Origin: Escherichia coli
GTDB lineage: Bacteria > Pseudomonadota > Gammaproteobacteria > Enterobacterales > Enterobacteriaceae
DNA length: 64,000 nt
NCBI RefSeq assembly: GCF_022846255.1
Contig: NZ_AP025682.1
Reading direction: 5' to 3' (one strand)
Within the stretch, counting starts at the first letter, position 1; every line of letters starts with the position of its first letter. Both the position numbers and the translations under genes were made by a program. The notes under the pieces are model-generated. The model was not told the origin of the DNA, ran no database searches, and saw only the letters and a program-made list of their open reading frames with translations. Shown here in pieces: positions 39,586 to 48,224 of the stretch.

Positions 39586-40869
39586 GTGAACACATTTTCA
39601 GTTTCCCGTCTGGCGCTGGCATTGGCTTTTGGCGTGACGCTGACCGCCTGTAGCTCAACACCGCCCGATCAACGTCCTTCTGATCAAACCGCGCCTGGTA
39701 CCTCTTCTCGCCCGATTCTGTCGGCAAAAGAAGCGCAGAATTTCGATGCTCAACACTATTTTGCATCCCTGACACCAGGTGCGGCAGCGTGGAATCCTTC
39801 CCCGATTACCCTGCCTGCGCAACCTGACTTTGTTGTCGGCCCGGCGGGTACTCAAGGTGTAACGCATACCACGATTCAGGCGGCGGTAGATGCGGCAATT
39901 ATCAAGCGTACCAACAAGCGCCAGTATATTGCCGTGATGCCTGGTGAGTATCAGGGAACGGTATATGTCCCTGCCGCTCCGGGTGGAATTACTCTGTACG
40001 GTACAGGTGAAAAACCGATTGATGTGAAGATTGGGCTTTCCCTTGATGGGGGCATGAGCCCTGCCGACTGGCGTCACGACGTCAACCCGCGCGGCAAATA
40101 TATGCCAGGTAAACCAGCGTGGTATATGTACGATAGCTGCCAGAGCAAACGCAGCGACAGTATCGGCGTTCTCTGCTCTGCGGTCTTCTGGTCACAAAAC
40201 AATGGACTGCAACTGCAAAACCTGACCATCGAAAACACGCTGGGCGATAGCGTAGATGCGGGTAACCATCCGGCGGTGGCACTGCGTACTGATGGTGACC
40301 AGGTACAGATTAACAACGTTAACATTCTCGGTCGTCAGAACACCTTCTTTGTCACCAACAGCGGTGTGCAGAACCGTCTGGAAACGAATCGTCAGCCGCG
40401 TACGCTGGTGACCAACAGCTACATTGAAGGGGATGTGGATATCGTTTCTGGTCGCGGCGCAGTGGTGTTCGATAACACCGAATTCCGCGTGGTGAACTCC
40501 CGTACCCAGCAAGAAGCGTATGTGTTTGCACCGGCTACGCTGTCCAACATTTACTACGGTTTCCTCGCCGTAAACAGCCGTTTCAATGCTTCCGGTGATG
40601 GCGTGGCGCAACTGGGCCGCTCGCTGGATGTTGATGCCAATACCAACGGTCAGGTAGTGATCCGTGATAGCGCCATCAACGAAGGTTTTAACACGGCCAA
40701 ACCGTGGGCCGATGCGGTGATCTCAAATCGTCCGTTTGCGGGTAACACCGGCAGCGTTGATGATAAAGACGAAATACAGCGCAATCTGAATGACACTAAC
40801 TACAACCGCATGTGGGAATACAATAACCGCGGCGTGGGTAGCAAAGTGGTTGCAGAGGCGAAGAAGTAG
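39586..40869 (+). CDS. ybhC: pectinesterase-fold outer-membrane lipoprotein YbhC
   Basis: 427-aa ORF, lipoprotein signal peptide (LTACSS), pectin methylesterase-like motifs. Confidence 0.92.
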   Translation: MNTFSVSRLALALAFGVTLTACSSTPPDQRPSDQTAPGTSSRPILSAKEAQNFDAQHYFASLTPGAAAWNPSPITLPAQPDFVVGPAGTQGVTHTTIQAAVDAAIIKRTNKRQYIAVMPGEYQGTVYVPAAPGGITLYGTGEKPIDVKIGLSLDGGMSPADWRHDVNPRGKYMPGKPAWYMYDSCQSKRSDSIGVLCSAVFWSQNNGLQLQNLTIENTLGDSVDAGNHPAVALRTDGDQVQINNVNILGRQNTFFVTNSGVQNRLETNRQPRTLVTNSYIEGDVDIVSGRGAVVFDNTEFRVVNSRTQQEAYVFAPATLSNIYYGFLAVNSRFNASGDGVAQLGRSLDVDANTNGQVVIRDSAINEGFNTAKPWADAVISNRPFAGNTGSVDDKDEIQRNLNDTNYNRMWEYNNRGVGSKVVAEAKK

Positions 40870-40884
40870 GAGCTGTTAACTATG

Positions 40885-40995
<111 letters not shown>

Positions 40996-41009: not shown

Positions 41010-43271
41010 TTACATCTGACGGTTTTTATTGAAGTTAATCAAACTACCCGCCTTGATAATCTCGCGCTCTTCGGCCGTCAGGCTTTCCATATAGAGCGTG
41101 ATTTCCGTTACCGGCGCATCTTCATGGATCACATAACCTTTAAACGTCGTTCCAGGATTATCCAGCGCCGTTTTAATGCCAGGGATGTAAATGTAATCCC
41201 CCACTTCAAACGTTGGTGCTTCCGCCATTTGCAGCGGTAACATCCCCCAGTTGATGACGTTAGAACGGTAGCGTTTAGTCGCGTATTCCTCGGCAATATT
41301 CGCCAGACCGCCAATCACACGCTGGCAGCTCGCCGCCTGCTCACGCGCAGAACCATCGCCTGGTTTCACCGCATAGACCATGCTGCCAATTTCAGTTTGC
41401 AGCGGATCAATATGCTCCTGACCAGCAATCTGCTTAATGCGCGCAAACACCTCTGTCAGCTCGCTGACATTCCCCGCCAGACGCTGATTTTCCAGCTCAG
41501 CAGTCGCTTTACTTCTGCCAACATAACCGGGATCGCGGCGTGACAGGGTAAACTCCGCCAGACCAATCGGATTTGAACGATAAGAAGAGGTTTCACCGGA
41601 AGGAATCAGTTCGTCGGTGGTGGTGACTTCGTCGAGGATCTTCGAGCACACTTTGAGGACGATATTGTCAGTCAGCGCACCCAATTCCGGCCAGTCTTTG
41701 ATGTTCGGTCCGTAGATCAGCGGTTGCTGGGTCGCCCCTTTCACAAAGCCTTGATAGACGCGATTTTTATACGGCGTTACATCGAAGGCGTACTCCGGCA
41801 CGTTGTCCCAGCAATCGAGTTCGCTGGCAGAGGTTAAATAGCCACCGTTTGCCGCAGTCGCAGCGATAGAACGAGCGTCCATCAACGCCACCGCTGACAT
41901 CTGCCCATTAGCTGGCTTAGAGCCTTCGCGGTTCGGGAAGTTACGCGTGGTGTGGCGAATACTCAAACCGTTGTTGATTGGCGTATCGCCCGCGCCAAAG
42001 CATGGGCCGCAGAACGCGGTTCTGATGATTGCGCCTGCGCCAATCAAATCTGCTACCACACCTTTTTTGGCGAGATCCATAAACACCGGCTGTGATGACG
42101 GGTAAACCGCCAACGAGAAGGTATCGTTGCCGCAGGATTGACCGCGCAGCGCATTCGCCGCCGCGATGACGTTTTCGTAGTTACCGCCAGAACAGCCCGC
42201 GATAATCCCCTGCTGCACTTTCAGGCGACCATTTTCCACTTTATCCAGCAGCGAGAGTTTGGCTTTACCGTGCGCCACGCGTTCGGACTCAATTTCAATC
42301 TCACGCAGAATGTCGGTCAGATTCTGGTTCAGCGTGTCGATTTCATACACGTTGCTCGGGTGGAATGGCAGCGCAATCATTGGTTTGATGGCGCTTAAAT
42401 CAACACTGATGCAGCCATCGTAGTACGCCATTGGTTGAGGGTTAAGTTGGCAGTAATCCTGGCCGCGACCGTGCAGCGCCAGCCAGTTATGGACTTCTTC
42501 ATCGGTTTGCCAGACAGAACTTAAACAGGTCGTTTCAGTGGTCATCACGTCAACGCTGTTGCGGAAATCGGTAGAGAGCGCTGCAACACCGGGACCTACG
42601 AACTCCATCACTTTGTTTTTGACGTAACCGTTTTTGAACACGGCACCGATGATAGCCAGCGCCACATCCTGCGGCCCCACATACGGCGCAGGTTTTCCGG
42701 TCAGATGCACCGCAACCACGCCCGGATAGTCGATATCCCAGGTGTCATTAAGCAGTTGTTTTACCAGCTCGCCGCCGCCCTCACCGACTGCCATTGTCCC
42801 TAATGCGCCGTAACGGGTGTGGCTGTCTGATCCGAGGATCATTTTGCCGCCGCCAGCCATCATTTCACGCATATATTGATGGATGACCGCAATATGCGGT
42901 GGCACAAAAATACCGCCATAACGCTGGGCCGCCGATAAACCAAAAATATGGTCATCACCGTTAATGGTGCCGCCGACGGCGCAGAGTGAGTTATGGCAGT
43001 TGGTCAGCACATACGGCAGCGGGAAACGTTCCATACCGGACGCTTTAGCGGTCTGTACAATACCAACAAAGGTAATATCGTGAGAGGCTAATGAATCAAA
43101 CTTAATTTTAAGTTTATCCATATTACCAGACGTATTATGAGAAGAGAGAATAGACCAGGCAATAGTGCCTTTTTTTGCTTCTTCTTTTTTTATTTCGCCG
43201 GTGAAATGTTCTTCGGCAATTATTTCGTTATTGCTGGCGAGAAACACGCCTTTTTCAGATAACTTGATCAT
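41010..43271 (-). CDS. ybhJ: aconitase-family [4Fe-4S] hydratase YbhJ
   Basis: ORF track 41010-43295; 753 aa from MIKLSEKG; aconitase motifs (SDSHT, AGCSGG, CGPCFG cysteine ligands), C-terminal swivel-like domain. Confidence 0.9.
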
Positions 43272-43338
43272 CAAATGCTCCAGATATCTGCGCACCGTGA
43301 AGTGCGCAGAAAGATAATAAATGGATATACTCTAAATA

Positions 43339-43448
43339 ATTCGAGTTGCAGGAAGGCGACAAGCGAGTGAATCCCCAGGAGCTTACATAAGTAAGTGACT
43401 GGGGTGAGCGAACGCAGACGCAGCACATGCAACTTGAAGTATGACGAG
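43339..43448. repeat. ERIC / IRU element between ybhJ and ybhI
   Basis: Contains both ERIC halves: gtgaatccccaggagcttacat and aagtaagtgactggggtgagcg, then ...cagcacatgcaacttgaagtatgacgag. Confidence 0.9.
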
Positions 43449-43453
43449 TATAT

Positions 43454-44887
43454 TTACAGCATGTTCCAGCCGATCAGCATATTCCACCACCACACGCCGA
43501 GGGTGATATGCACCAGGAAGGTTAATATCGTCAGTACCGCACCGACCAACCACCAGGATTTAATATCGTTGTAACCCACGCCAAAGATGACCGGACCTGC
43601 CGCGCCGCCATAGTGAGTAACCATGCCGCCATAGGAGTTAGAGAACAACAGTGCCAGCGCGGTTAACATTAACGGTGCGCCGGAGACGTTCGCCAGCATG
43701 GCAAACACAGGTAACATAGCAACGATATAGGCACTACCAGAAGCGAAGAAATAACGCACGATGATGCTGAGGAAAATAATAACGAAGAAAGCAACGTTCC
43801 CGTGACCATCAAATGCCAGGTTATTTTTAAAGACTTCAGCTAACCATTCGAAGAATTTAACTTTCGATAATAAGGAGCTTAAGCCGATAATACCGCCGTA
43901 CCAGATTAAGGTATTCCAGCCGCCTTTATTTTTAACCACGTCTTCCCAGGTAACGATACCCAGCAGCAGCATAGTTGCCATAACAACGATTGCCACGGTG
44001 GATTCATCAACCCCCAGAGACTTACTGAAAATCCAGCCCAGCAGCGCCAGCACAAAGACACCGAGCAGCATTTTTTCGCGGATTTTCATCGGTCCCAGTT
44101 CGGCAAGGCCCGCTTTAGCGATGGTTTTGTTATCCACCTTCTTAATTTCTGGTGGATACATGGTGTAAATCACCAGCGGGGTGACCAGCAGCATAATGAT
44201 GCCCGGCAATCCGGCGGCTAGCGCCCATCCACCCCAGCTAATTTGCAGGTGCAGAATGTCGTTGATCATTTTCAGCGCCAGAATGTTCCCCGCCATTGCG
44301 GTAAAGAACATATAGCTGGTGGTTTTAGTGACCATGTAAATGGACATCATCAGGTAATGTCCAACACGACGCGGACTTTTTTCCGGTTCTGATCCCAAAG
44401 CCACTGCCACGCTGTTGATGATCGGTAACACGATGCCGCCCGCACGCGCGGTGTTAGACGGTGTTGCCGGAGCCAGTACCAGATCGAGAAATACCGTAAC
44501 GTAACCCAGACCCAGGGTAGTGCTACCAATTTTACCAATCAGCAGATAGGCAATACGTTTACCTAAGCCTGTGGTTACAAACGCGGCGCTTAAAGTAAAC
44601 GCAGAAAACACCAGCCAGGTGGTACCGGAAGAGTAACCGCTTAATACGGCGGTGGTTTTAAATTCCCCACCTGATAAGTTACCCACCACGACCATCGATG
44701 CGGCGACGGCAATTAACAGTACGACAGGTTCCGGGAAAGGCTTGATAACCAGCCCCACAATGGCCGCCAGGTAAATACCAAAAAGCACCCACGCCAGTTC
44801 GCTTAATCCTGCCGGAGCTGGCATAAAGCCAATAATACATGGGATCGCTAATATCAGAATTAGCTTCCATAACGATTTTTTATTCAT
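43454..44887 (-). CDS. ybhI: DASS-family anion (di/tricarboxylate-type) transporter YbhI
   Basis: 477-aa polytopic membrane ORF of DASS/SLC13-like architecture. Confidence 0.9.
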   Translation of the reverse strand: MNKKSLWKLILILAIPCIIGFMPAPAGLSELAWVLFGIYLAAIVGLVIKPFPEPVVLLIAVAASMVVVGNLSGGEFKTTAVLSGYSSGTTWLVFSAFTLSAAFVTTGLGKRIAYLLIGKIGSTTLGLGYVTVFLDLVLAPATPSNTARAGGIVLPIINSVAVALGSEPEKSPRRVGHYLMMSIYMVTKTTSYMFFTAMAGNILALKMINDILHLQISWGGWALAAGLPGIIMLLVTPLVIYTMYPPEIKKVDNKTIAKAGLAELGPMKIREKMLLGVFVLALLGWIFSKSLGVDESTVAIVVMATMLLLGIVTWEDVVKNKGGWNTLIWYGGIIGLSSLLSKVKFFEWLAEVFKNNLAFDGHGNVAFFVIIFLSIIVRYFFASGSAYIVAMLPVFAMLANVSGAPLMLTALALLFSNSYGGMVTHYGGAAGPVIFGVGYNDIKSWWLVGAVLTILTFLVHITLGVWWWNMLIGWNML

Positions 44888-44962
44888 TTAATATCCTGTT
44901 CTTTCTGTATGACTCATACAGAATTCCTTTATTGATTGTCATTATCACGACAACAAAATTTT

Positions 44963-46015
44963 TCAGGGAAGATAAACTTCACCGGAAAATATTTTTCTTG
45001 TCGTCCGAATAACAGATGCGCGTAACGTCGTGGCATCCTGACCTTCATTACTTAAATGAACGTCGAGCGCACCACTGGGGTGTTCAATATTGATATTGCC
45101 GTATCCTACAGAAGGGACGATTTGTCGGGTGACGGTACCTTCCAATGCACAACTACTGGAAATAGCAATAGCACCGGTTATCGCCAAAGCGCGATGGCAA
45201 GAATGCGGCATAAAATAACGCACATTAATTGCCCCGCCTTTCTGCGCTGGAGAAATAAGTACAGGTTTAGGGATAACCATATTACTGACATCGCCTAAGC
45301 CCATTGCTTTACCCGCTTGTAGACGGATAGATTCAATGCGGGCTAATAATGCTTTGTCGGCATCCAGCTCTGCCGGTAATTCATAGCCTGTTTTTCCCAG
45401 ATATTCAGCAGGAATAATGACAACTGGCATCGCCATATCGATACAGGTCACCGGGACATCGTCAAAATAATCAATCTGATTATCCGTCGGGAAGACTTTT
45501 CCGGTTTTCGTTCCGGCGGCATTCAGGAAAGTGAGCGCAACCGGTGCGGCAGTACCCGGTACGCCGTCAATTCTGGCGCTACCCTCGTACTCGACAACAC
45601 CATTTGGCGTTTGCACATCAGCTTCGATAAACGTACCCGTATTGACGTTGCGGATACGTACGCGGGTAACTGGCGAAGTCGCTGCAATCAAACCATTTTC
45701 AATGGCGAATGCCCCAACGCCAGACAGCATATTGCCGCAGTTAGGCGTGGTATCGACACGTTGCTCATGGACGATAACTTGAGCAAACAGATAATCGACA
45801 TCTGCACGCGGATCGCTGGAGCGGCTAATAATGGCGACTTTACTGGTCAGCGGATTACCGCCGCCAATACCGTCAATTTCCAGATCGTTACCGGAACCCA
45901 TAATTGCCATCAATATTTTATCGCGCTGCGTTTGATCTTCGGGTAGATGTTCCGCTAACAGGAACGCGCCCCTCGAGGTTCCACCTCGCATCATCACGCA
46001 GGGTATTTTTTTCAT
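44963..46015 (-). CDS. ybhH: PrpF-family isomerase YbhH
   Basis: 350-aa ORF; PrpF/AcnD-accessory family features. Confidence 0.88.
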   Translation of the reverse strand: MKKIPCVMMRGGTSRGAFLLAEHLPEDQTQRDKILMAIMGSGNDLEIDGIGGGNPLTSKVAIISRSSDPRADVDYLFAQVIVHEQRVDTTPNCGNMLSGVGAFAIENGLIAATSPVTRVRIRNVNTGTFIEADVQTPNGVVEYEGSARIDGVPGTAAPVALTFLNAAGTKTGKVFPTDNQIDYFDDVPVTCIDMAMPVVIIPAEYLGKTGYELPAELDADKALLARIESIRLQAGKAMGLGDVSNMVIPKPVLISPAQKGGAINVRYFMPHSCHRALAITGAIAISSSCALEGTVTRQIVPSVGYGNINIEHPSGALDVHLSNEGQDATTLRASVIRTTRKIFSGEVYLP

Positions 46016-46198
46016 AATAATGCCCTCAATTTAAAAACATAACTTATTGCGATATGGTTACATTAAGGGCAAAGCATCTCTAATGACTTTAGCTCAACGA
46101 TTAATAACATTTTTTCATTAATTTAAGTTGGCTAAATGCAGTTAAAATTTTTAACTGCCAGTCACCCAAAATCGTCGCTTCCATTTTCCGGAGTAATA

Positions 46199-47152
46199 AT
46201 GAAGCATGAATTATCAAGTATGAAGGCATTTGTCATACTGGCAGAGTCCAGTTCATTTAACAATGCCGCTAAATTACTCAATATTACGCAACCTGCATTA
46301 ACGCGAAGAATAAAAAAGATGGAGGAAGATTTACATATTCAACTATTTGAGCGTACAACTCGCAAGGTTACGTTAACAAAAGCAGGAAAAAGGTTGCTCC
46401 CGGAGGCGCGGGAATTAATAAAGAAATTCGATGAAACGCTTTTTAATATTCGTGATATGAATGCTTATCATCGTGGTATGGTGACGTTAGCGTGTATTCC
46501 GACCGCAGTATTTTATTTTTTACCGCTGGCAATCGGTAAATTTAATGAGCTGTATCCCAATATTAAAGTGCGGATTCTGGAACAAGGCACGAATAATTGC
46601 ATGGAATCGGTGCTGTGTAACGAATCAGACTTTGGCATAAACATGAACAACGTCACAAATTCATCCATTGATTTTACCCCACTGGTCAACGAGCCGTTCG
46701 TGCTGGCCTGTCGGCGTGACCATCCATTGGCCAAAAAGCAGCTTGTAGAATGGCAGGAGTTAGTGGGTTACAAAATGATTGGCGTACGCTCCTCCAGCGG
46801 CAACCGACTGTTGATAGAACAACAGCTAGCCGACAAGCCCTGGAAGCTGGACTGGTTTTACGAAGTGCGTCATCTTTCGACGTCATTAGGGCTGGTGGAG
46901 GCGGGACTGGGGATTTCGGCGCTTCCTGGTCTGGCAATGCCCCATGCGCCCTATTCTTCGATTATTGGTATCCCGCTGGTGGAACCGGTTATACGTCGGA
47001 CATTGGGGATTATTCGCCGCAAAGATGCCGTGCTTTCTCCGGCAGCTGAACGCTTTTTTGCCTTGCTGATTAATTTGTGGACTGACGATAAAGACAATTT
47101 GTGGACCAATATCGTCGAACGCCAGAGACATGCGTTACAGGAGATAGGTTAA
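46199..47152 (+). CDS. ybhD: LysR-type transcriptional regulator YbhD
   Basis: ORF track 46136-47152; 317 aa from MKHELSSMKAF; N-terminal LysR HTH; divergent from ybhH. Confidence 0.9.
   Translation: MKHELSSMKAFVILAESSSFNNAAKLLNITQPALTRRIKKMEEDLHIQLFERTTRKVTLTKAGKRLLPEARELIKKFDETLFNIRDMNAYHRGMVTLACIPTAVFYFLPLAIGKFNELYPNIKVRILEQGTNNCMESVLCNESDFGINMNNVTNSSIDFTPLVNEPFVLACRRDHPLAKKQLVEWQELVGYKMIGVRSSSGNRLLIEQQLADKPWKLDWFYEVRHLSTSLGLVEAGLGISALPGLAMPHAPYSSIIGIPLVEPVIRRTLGIIRRKDAVLSPAAERFFALLINLWTDDKDNLWTNIVERQRHALQEIG

Positions 47153-47192: not shown

Positions 47193-48224
<1,032 letters not shown>

Follow-up and report, generated by a model that had tools for sequence, protein, structure and literature searches.

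A candidate trans-aconitate import, isomerisation and hydration module in Escherichia coli: the ybhD-ybhHIJ genes

The ybhD, ybhH, ybhI and ybhJ genes of Escherichia coli are still labelled 'putative regulator', 'putative isomerase', 'putative tricarboxylate transporter' and 'putative hydratase' in the RefSeq annotation of strain K-12. They were analysed here in a 64,000-nucleotide stretch of contig NZ_AP025682.1 (assembly GCF_022846255.1), referred to below as the window. Comparison of the four proteins, their relatives and their gene neighbourhoods makes it modestly probable that they form an inducible module for the import of trans-aconitate, probably by antiport, its isomerisation and the hydration of the product. 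A sequence-only reading of the window had described three co-oriented minus-strand genes and a divergent LysR gene, and open reading frames of the claimed size, strand and coordinates are present. Profile searches upheld its family assignments (aconitase superfamily, here the NF008503 'hydratase' family; DASS; PrpF family; LysR), and it was right that substrate and role in E. coli are not established. A literature search for a biochemical assignment of any of the four genes returned none, only regulatory and phenotypic data (PMC9068703, PMC4054840). Its general idea of an import, isomerisation and hydration module under a divergent LysR gene is supported and can be narrowed, and its specific analogy with AcnD-PrpF is not supported. 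Among the three substrate classes that it offered, aconitate, specifically trans-aconitate, is favoured over methylcitrate and itaconate.

In the proposed scheme, YbhI would import trans-aconitate and probably send out a C4/C5 dicarboxylate (succinate or malate, for instance) in return, in the manner of CitT and TtdT. YbhH, an allylic isomerase with a Lys59/Cys93 pair, would convert trans- to cis-aconitate, as suggested by its orthology to assayed Pseudomonas enzymes. YbhJ, a clostridial-type and probably horizontally acquired protein, would hydrate cis-aconitate to citrate and/or isocitrate, a step suggested by the gene context of its orthologues, and these products would enter citrate lyase or isocitrate dehydrogenase routes. 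YbhD would bind ATTAAT-N11-ATTAAT and CTAATGACTTTAG sites and keep ybhH off in the absence of ligand; the repression itself is published, and the presumed effector is trans-aconitate or a close relative. The enterobacterial module would combine a proteobacterial regulator-isomerase core with a clostridial-type aconitase.

YbhH (44963-46015, minus strand, 350 aa) is near-identical to the unpublished PDB entry 6OTV, 'putative isomerase YbhH' (E = 2e-232), and its next matches are LigU, 3-methylitaconate isomerase and PrpF. PF04303 is recorded on YbhH orthologues. Lys59, in the motif TSKVAI, and Cys93, in PNCGNM, are the equivalents of the catalytic Lys/Cys pairs of PrpF (K73/C107) and LigU (K66/C100), placing YbhH in the PrpF family. 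In a neighbour-joining tree (100 bootstraps) YbhH and the proteins from Klebsiella, Dickeya, Pseudomonas and Rhizobium form one clade in 100/100 replicates. The clade holding LigU and the isomerases of protocatechuate (PCA) clusters is separate and is itself recovered in 100/100. TbrA, an aconitate isomerase from B. thuringiensis, takes the sister position to the YbhH clade in 79/100 replicates, and LigU takes it in 19/100. Of the 44 columns that separate the Pseudomonas proteins from the LigU clade, YbhH sides with the Pseudomonas proteins in 25 and with LigU in 5. The Prokaryotic Genome Annotation Pipeline (PGAP) calls all YbhH-clade proteins '4-oxalomesaconate tautomerase' via model NF033377 (loci L081, L083, L085 and L087).

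The YbhH clade appears to contain validated aconitate isomerases. In a study of the TarR/TarA/TarB trans-aconitate system, 16 TarA homologues from trans-aconitate-utilising isolates were assayed (PMC11495376). AI-7-1, AI-16-1, AI-32-1 and AI-41-1, each from a Pseudomonas isolate, had 88-101% of the trans-to-cis activity of TarA (PMC11495376, Tables S2 and S4), and the PrpF-proper paralogues of the same four strains had only 2-4%. The cloning primers in that paper encode the N-termini QRIPCV(L) and the C-termini FRRLAG, LRRLAG or AQRLAG for the four active enzymes. These termini match Pseudomonas YbhH-clade proteins that are 60-64% identical to YbhH and among its top homologues (MQRIPCVL...TFRRLAG, TARRLAG and SQRLAG), and the low-activity paralogues start with AHVPQV, like PrpF. 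Matched by primer-encoded termini, enzymes of measured trans/cis-aconitate isomerase activity would therefore share a clade with YbhH. The poor aconitate isomerisation by PrpF-proper enzymes indicates that the PrpF-proper and YbhH clades differ functionally. A tblastn table in the same paper lists a 'tarA homologue' of ~39% identity in E. fergusonii, Citrobacter and Klebsiella, with no further comment.

In the Tar system of Bacillus velezensis FZB42 (PMC11495376), as is proposed for the ybh locus, one operon brings together a LysR regulator in divergent orientation, an aconitate isomerase of the PrpF superfamily and an importer dedicated to the acid. Both would follow the same logic, the acid being imported and then isomerised to the tricarboxylic acid cycle intermediate cis-aconitate. 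The components differ in several respects. TarA is only ~39% identical to enteric YbhH-type proteins (Table S6), and the importer TarB belongs to the MFS, in contrast to YbhI, a probable DASS exchanger, so that a TarB-type carrier is missing from the ybh module. TarR activates from TTATAA sites; YbhD, judged by the published mutant, represses ybhH. No dedicated aconitase belongs to the Tar system.

Gene order supports the grouping of the isomerases. Enterobacterial proteins 76-96% identical to YbhH lie in the order ybhD<>ybhH-ybhI-ybhJ (<> marking divergent genes), which is found in E. albertii, three Citrobacter species and Intestinirhabdus. The module occupies different chromosomal sites in Edwardsiella hoshinae and Klebsiella, and neighbourhood comparison across Proteobacteria, as the sequence-only reading had proposed, established that the four genes are co-conserved as a relocatable unit. 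The Klebsiella version (69% to YbhH) reads LysR<>isomerase-DASS-second carrier-YbhJ and stands beside ileS-lspA-ispH. Its second carrier (420 aa) has no homology to the Pseudomonas CitMHS-like carrier at E <= 1e-5. The Pseudomonas loci (63-64%) read LysR<>isomerase-SDF carrier-CitMHS-like carrier-OprD porin, and a Rhizobium plasmid (58%) carries LysR<>isomerase-ABC transporter. In Dickeya (63%) LysR<>isomerase-MFS carrier is followed by an FAA-hydrolase-family gene and citCDEF. More distant isomerases have other partners: those of Azospirillum, Novosphingobium KA1 (LigU) and Agrobacterium (44-50%) lie in protocatechuate 4,5-cleavage clusters with a 4-carboxy-4-hydroxy-2-oxoadipate (CHA) aldolase, a LigJ-type amidohydrolase and LigAB, B. 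thuringiensis TbrA (42%) lies with its exporter, and Ralstonia PrpF (36%) with prpB-prpC-acnD. All five YbhH-clade loci examined outside E. coli have a divergent LysR gene, the isomerase and carboxylate transporters, and never LigJ, LigK or LigAB.

Across Proteobacteria the regulator-isomerase pair is constant and the family of the adjoining transporter is swapped. A constant pair with interchangeable carboxylate uptake and no downstream enzyme indicates that the product of isomerisation is already a central metabolite. The Pseudomonas loci assigned by primer-encoded termini to the enzymes of measured trans-to-cis activity illustrate this arrangement. They share with E. coli an isomerase of the YbhH clade and a LysR gene orthologous to ybhD (54%), and differ in having other transporter families and an outer-membrane porin and in lacking a YbhJ-type hydratase; a housekeeping aconitase must therefore take over. 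In Dickeya dadantii (locus L085, 9158-15511) the isomerase and MFS carrier are directly upstream of the FAA-hydrolase-family gene and citC-citD-citE-citF, an arrangement that points to a plant-pathogen route leading trans-aconitate to citrate lyase.

YbhD (46199-47152, plus strand, 317 aa) is transcribed divergently from ybhH. Its true start is the ATG at 46199 downstream of GGAG, as in K-12, and not the open reading frame start at 46136. The protein has HTH_1 and LysR_substrate domains. It is 64%, 60%, 54% and 50% identical to the LysR proteins encoded divergently from YbhH-clade isomerases in Klebsiella, Dickeya, Pseudomonas and Rhizobium, and its identity to the LysR proteins that accompany PCA clusters or clostridial ybhJ is only ~22-25%. 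The sequence-only reading had overlooked published regulation: ybhH is strongly up-regulated in a ybhD mutant, and the same study describes a chromatin immunoprecipitation-exonuclease (ChIP-exo) site, control by Nac and a phenotype in growth with L-malate (PMC9068703). That work offered no substrate beyond 'L-malate utilisation related'. The ybhD-ybhH spacer (46016-46198) is an AT-rich divergent control region with candidate YbhD binding sites. The AT-richness noted earlier near ybhD is real (GC 0.34 at 46000-46399 against ~0.52 around it) and covers the control region and the 5' part of ybhD. In an alignment of the spacer from eight species, ATTAAT-N11-ATTAAT at 46100-46122, a LysR-type T-N11-A palindrome, is conserved in enterics, and CTAATGACTTTAG at 46080-46092 is a second conserved block. 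YbhD thus has the features of a LysR regulator of a divergent operon, and the two conserved motifs are its putative binding sites.

YbhI (43454-44887, minus strand, 477 aa) scores 553 bits on the DASS model TIGR00785. Its only solved relatives are the chloroplast carriers DiT1/DiT2 and the exchanger LaINDY, with no match to a cotransporter. In DASS exchangers both sodium sites, Na1 and Na2, are taken by fixed cationic residues (Arg159 and His392 in LaINDY), which cotransporters lack (eLife, PMC7553777). YbhI keeps the Na1-surrogate Arg in PSNTAR. At the positions of LaINDY His392/His401 it has Arg/Tyr (IIVRYFFASGSAY), the same pattern as TtdT (LLRYFFASATAY), a proven antiporter of L-tartrate and succinate, and CitT has His/His. 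The identity of YbhI to CitT and to TtdT is 35% in each case. By these residues it would be of the exchanger (DASS-E) type, and antiport is probably its mode of transport. The closest architectural parallel within E. coli is ttdR<>ttdA-ttdB-ttdT, for L-tartrate fermentation, which shares a LysR regulator, an oxygen-labile Fe-S hydro-lyase and a DASS-E succinate antiporter. It differs in that TtdAB is class I fumarase-like and YbhJ is of the aconitase family, and the ybh module has an extra isomerase step and a substrate that is only proposed. The citrate fermentation genes citT-citCDEFXG likewise include a DASS-E antiporter exchanging substrate for succinate.

YbhJ (41010-43271, minus strand) is a protein of 753 aa from an ATG; the maximum open reading frame is 761 aa from a GTG at 43295. 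NCBIfam has a model, NF008503 'hydratase', of which YbhJ itself is the type (1540 bits), and every named model for aconitase, isopropylmalate isomerase or AcnD scores it far under the cut-off (343.7 bits on the PRK07229 aconitase model, for example, the cut-off being 612). At least 591 relatives turned up when one genome per species was scanned. Among the best 80, which were examined, only 6 are from Enterobacteria and the others are mostly from gut Clostridia (Lachnospiraceae, Enterocloster, Hungatella and others). Shigella, Enterobacter and several Klebsiella species join them in a wider protein search. Amino-acid identity between YbhJ and its clostridial orthologues is 67-75%, very high for a cross-phylum pair, and the enteric proteins including Klebsiella are monophyletic in 29/30 bootstrap replicates. 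On these comparisons YbhJ belongs to the aconitase family as the enteric branch of a clade found chiefly in Clostridia, and is not a relative of AcnD.

The neighbours of the clostridial genes point to citrate, aconitate or isocitrate as the business of the family. When clustered and named through NCBIfam, they include citrate synthase at 18 loci, an isocitrate-dehydrogenase-type protein at 17, CitDEF at ~9 and CitMHS at 7, and CcpC/CidR-like LysR regulators at 24. At least one of citrate synthase, isocitrate dehydrogenase, citrate lyase and CitMHS lies within 6 kb in 33 of 73 Firmicute loci. Other recurrent neighbours (elongation factor G, penicillin-binding protein, CPBP protease, ChrA and glycosyltransferases) give no clue to the metabolism. 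YbhI is absent beside clostridial ybhJ, and a PrpF-like gene is within 6 kb in only 2 of 73 full-length loci. The three-gene combination ybhH-ybhI-ybhJ is therefore an enterobacterial assembly. A different arrangement was seen in gut Clostridia at two loci (L072, 8567-15872; L031, 7250-12432), where genes for an RraA-like aldolase/oxaloacetate decarboxylase, a canonical PRK07229 aconitase and a YbhJ paralogue (49%) are clustered with a PrpF-like isomerase and a divergent isocitrate-dehydrogenase-like dehydrogenase. This cluster, with LysR genes and a YbhJ orthologue of 69% identity next to it, looks like an anaerobic tricarboxylate catabolic pathway.

The active site of YbhJ is largely that of an aconitase. 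C360, C421 and C424 are the equivalents of the cluster ligands, and S641 is that of the catalytic Ser642 in pig mitochondrial numbering. The further equivalents are H93, H131, H151, D149, E246, R443, R448, R565 and R643, the reference residues being His101/His147/His167, Asp165, Glu262 and Arg447/452/580/644; the counterpart of Arg580 lies in SYRSNP. All these positions are invariant in 80/80 family members, placing YbhJ in the superfamily. E. coli YbhJ also keeps 291 of the 296 positions that are invariant in 73 clostridial proteins, and the five changes are conservative. A ybhJ mutant is H2O2-sensitive and low in NADPH, like an icd mutant, and YbhJ was called a catalytically inactive aconitase paralogue in that work (PMC4054840). 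The description as inactive is discarded here. Because the active-site residues, including the cluster ligands, and 291/296 family-invariant positions are kept, YbhJ is seen as a constrained and catalytically equipped protein and not a decayed paralogue. The mutant phenotype is compatible with isocitrate supply and would fit a working aconitase.

Several observations weigh against the trans-aconitate reading. The residue corresponding to Asp100 of the Asp-His dyad is Cys92 in YbhJ and Cys in 80/80 NF008503 sequences, so the active site is not canonical. Ser643 is likewise replaced family-wide (Ala642), and both Cys and Ala recur in the 49% paralogue; the register of the NCHN motif is off by one residue between phmmer and MAFFT. 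A family-wide Cys in place of Asp100 means that YbhJ may not be a standard aconitase. At the two clostridial loci described above the YbhJ orthologue stands beside a canonical PRK07229 aconitase, which argues against simple redundancy. Blank et al. in 2002 reportedly saw no change in residual aconitase activity on inactivation of ybhJ, which may have been repressed under their conditions. Growth of E. coli on trans-aconitate is not known. The literature searched contained no activity measurement on any of the four E. coli proteins.

On the isomerase side, YbhH scores above the cut-off of the 4-oxalomesaconate tautomerase model NF033377 (515.2 against 440 bits). The link to the active Pseudomonas enzymes consists of 6-7 residues at each terminus, read from primers and not from full sequences. 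AI-79 of Providencia rettgeri had <1% activity (PMC11495376), and its C-terminus, GDVYVP, resembles enteric YbhH. Its primer starts at RGGTSK, so that the first beta-strand (MKKIPCVM in YbhH) was probably cut off in the construct; the result could also reflect genuinely inactive enteric-type enzymes. The sole reported phenotype of the ybhD mutant concerns L-malate, and ybhHI is Nac-controlled, neither of which is specific to trans-aconitate (PMC9068703).

Two circumstances would give a dedicated aconitase a rationale: trans-aconitate inhibits housekeeping aconitases, or the route runs anaerobically in the gut. The gut bacterium Acidaminococcus ferments trans-aconitate anaerobically via citrate, oxaloacetate and pyruvate (PMC3035267). 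Carried further, the trans-aconitate reading would give E. coli and its gut relatives a third functional aconitase, clostridial in type and with a Cys-His dyad. It would have been captured horizontally into a proteobacterial regulator-isomerase cassette, along with a TtdT-like antiporter, to give a hitherto unrecognised anaerobic trans-aconitate fermentation with succinate or malate leaving the cell. The module would also supply the missing EC 5.3.3.7 of E. coli, and many gut Clostridia would have this family as their working aconitase. This extended proposal is put forward tentatively, as something possible more than probable.

The main alternative keeps the architecture and the chemistry and changes the acid. 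The substrate would be another unsaturated di- or tricarboxylate, homoaconitate-, methylaconitate- or oxalomesaconate-like or a C5 compound (itaconate or citraconate), and YbhJ would be a specialised hydratase and not an aconitase. The Asp100-to-Cys change throughout the YbhJ family would fit such a specialisation, as would the YbhJ-type genes of L031 and L072, whose aconitase, RraA-like, PrpF-like and isocitrate-dehydrogenase-like companions suggest a non-citrate tricarboxylate pathway. Mii works with DmdAB in its pathway. More generally, PrpF-family enzymes with other substrates pair with aconitase-type hydratases (the Mii match is PDB 3G7K), and the phenotype of the ybhD mutant concerns malate. 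In contrast, YbhJ is closest (67-75%) to the orthologues clustered with citrate synthase, isocitrate dehydrogenase and citrate lyase and only 49% identical to the paralogue from the PrpF/RraA cluster, and the equivalent of aconitase Arg580 is conserved in it. The Pseudomonas members of the isomerase clade also appear to be active aconitate isomerases. Where the isomerase has transporters as its only partners, in Pseudomonas, Rhizobium and Dickeya, the product must be a central metabolite, for which cis-aconitate is the best fit. A different acid is on balance rather unlikely.

A role in metabolite repair is considered distinctly unlikely. YbhH and YbhJ would then recycle spontaneously formed trans-aconitate, which inhibits AcnA/AcnB, and complement the Tam methyltransferase, with YbhI exporting or exchanging the compound. 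EcoCyc treats trans-aconitate as a dead-end metabolite and enters its formation from cis-aconitate as a spontaneous reaction, and E. coli has a dedicated methyltransferase for this endogenous compound (PMC3781023). TbrA and TarA are interchangeable, the transporter setting the direction of flux (PMC11495376), and the stress phenotype of the ybhJ mutant was seen in rich laboratory conditions. However, the isomerases of the clade are always tied to uptake-type systems (an ABC transporter with binding protein, OprD porin, SDF carriers), and repression of the genes in laboratory media by a substrate-type LysR protein would be odd for housekeeping repair.

The PGAP name implies that YbhH is a 4-oxalomesaconate tautomerase (GalD/LigU) of gallate/protocatechuate 4,5-cleavage, with YbhJ replacing LigJ, which is very unlikely. 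In favour of the name, LigU catalyses an identical 1,3-allylic shift, on an analogue of aconitate. YbhH passes NF033377 (515 against 440 bits) and has LigU as its closest characterised solved structure (316 bits). LigU/GalD (PDB 6P3H/J/K) has the same fold, the Lys/Cys pair and a 1,3-allylic proton shift on a tricarboxylate as proposed for YbhH. LigU/GalD, however, is always part of a ring-cleavage cluster that includes LigJ and LigK, both missing at the ybh locus, and no ring-cleavage dioxygenase, LigJ-type hydratase or CHA aldolase lies beside any YbhH-clade locus examined. The PCA-cluster members sampled are 44-50% identical and form the separate 100/100 clade. The relatives of YbhJ are largely from gut Clostridia, presumably anaerobes without oxygen-dependent ring cleavage. 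On context and phylogeny the gallate/protocatechuate reading of YbhH is rejected, despite the passing NCBIfam score.

The sequence-only reading held that the pairing mirrors AcnD-PrpF, as known from the 2-methylcitrate cycle of Shewanella and Ralstonia. The likeness, an aconitase-superfamily dehydratase paired with a PrpF-family isomerase, is confined to the superfamily level. YbhJ scores 63.5 bits on the AcnD model TIGR02333 (cut-off 1419.85) and YbhH 186.9 on the PrpF-proper model TIGR02334 (cut-off 440.55). AcnD is AcnA-like and ~860 aa long, whereas YbhJ has 753 aa and is nearest to mitochondrial-type and PRK07229 aconitases. AcnD/PrpF dehydrates and then isomerises, and the ybh module would isomerise and then hydrate. 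Membership in this system is rejected on the profile scores, phylogeny and context. E. coli already uses PrpD for the 2-methylcitrate step. A function on 2-methylcitrate and 2-methyl-aconitate in propionate catabolism, for which the superfamily pairing and the canonical prpB-prpC-acnD-prpF of Ralstonia could be cited, is the least likely of all, since both scores are far below cut-off, YbhH is only 36% identical to PrpF and in a different clade, no prp genes are adjacent and neither prpB nor prpC adjoins any locus examined, and PrpF-proper enzymes are poor aconitate isomerases.

The favoured trans-aconitate module would be expressed from a likely single transcript of ybhH, ybhI and ybhJ. A promoter scan gave fewer promoter-like sites than shuffled sequence (6 against 9.7), and a terminator scan predicted none on the coding strand in the ybhI-ybhJ or ybhH-ybhI spacers; these scans neither prove nor refute co-transcription. 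The 75-bp ybhH-ybhI spacer has a near-perfect palindrome with a 9-bp stem, TTCTGTATGAcTCATACAGAA, at 44903-44923, with no T-run on the coding strand. The sequence-only reading placed REP and ERIC elements at the flanks of the region, and this holds for the first only. Repetitive extragenic palindromic (REP)/bacterial interspersed mosaic element (BIME)-type units, five overlapping inverted repeats, lie at 40878-40988 between the convergent ends of ybhC and ybhJ. They include GCCGGATGCGGCGTAAACGCCTTATCCGGCCTAC, which we take to be the classical REP sequence. The enterobacterial repetitive intergenic consensus (ERIC) element, or intergenic repeat unit (IRU), is internal. It occupies 43325-43453 (minus strand) in the 182-bp ybhI-ybhJ spacer and would form a long imperfect hairpin in the transcript. 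Both ERIC primers (ERIC1R and ERIC2) match perfectly at 43367-43410, with 0 chance matches expected. A 10-bp GC-rich hairpin at 43288-43309 (minus strand) is directly upstream of the ybhJ ribosome-binding site; it has no U-tract and was not called as a terminator. The predicted RNA fold of the spacer (43272-43453) has -66.1 kcal/mol (z = -6.1 against shuffles). The corresponding Citrobacter spacer is 66 bp and without ERIC. The ERIC element and GC hairpin may uncouple ybhJ expression from ybhHI in Escherichia.

The module in the window is flanked by ybhC (39586-40869, plus strand) and pgl (47193-48188, minus strand). The four proteins have the same lengths as in K-12 (753, 477, 350 and 317 aa for YbhJ, YbhI, YbhH and YbhD), and DNA identity to E. 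coli ybhJ, ybhI, ybhH and ybhD is 99.3%. The full ybhD-ybhHIJ region is present in 5316 of 5426 complete E. coli genomes (98%), leaving ~110 without a full-length copy. Insertions of IS903B or IS1A lie inside the module in some strains (NZ_CM142782.1 and NZ_CP195454.1), and in the latter (match H2) the annotation splits ybhI into two 'anion permease' pieces. Because of these insertions and the genomes without a full-length copy, the module is regarded as dispensable in some lineages.

The ybhD-ybhHIJ genes do not represent a new principle; what is offered is a concrete function proposal for long-standing orphans. Four core E. coli genes have been 'putative' for decades, and a specific and cheaply testable substrate hypothesis would take them off the y-ome. 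The name '4-oxalomesaconate tautomerase' appears over-extended to the YbhH clade, and 'hydratase' hides a probable major aconitase family of gut Clostridia. If the proposal is true, EcoCyc could assign an enzyme to a reaction that it now lists as spontaneous, and an aconitase isoenzyme would be added to the best-studied bacterium. As trans-aconitate is abundant in grasses, cereals and sugar cane, its use would then be a diet-linked niche trait common to Enterobacteria and gut Firmicutes.

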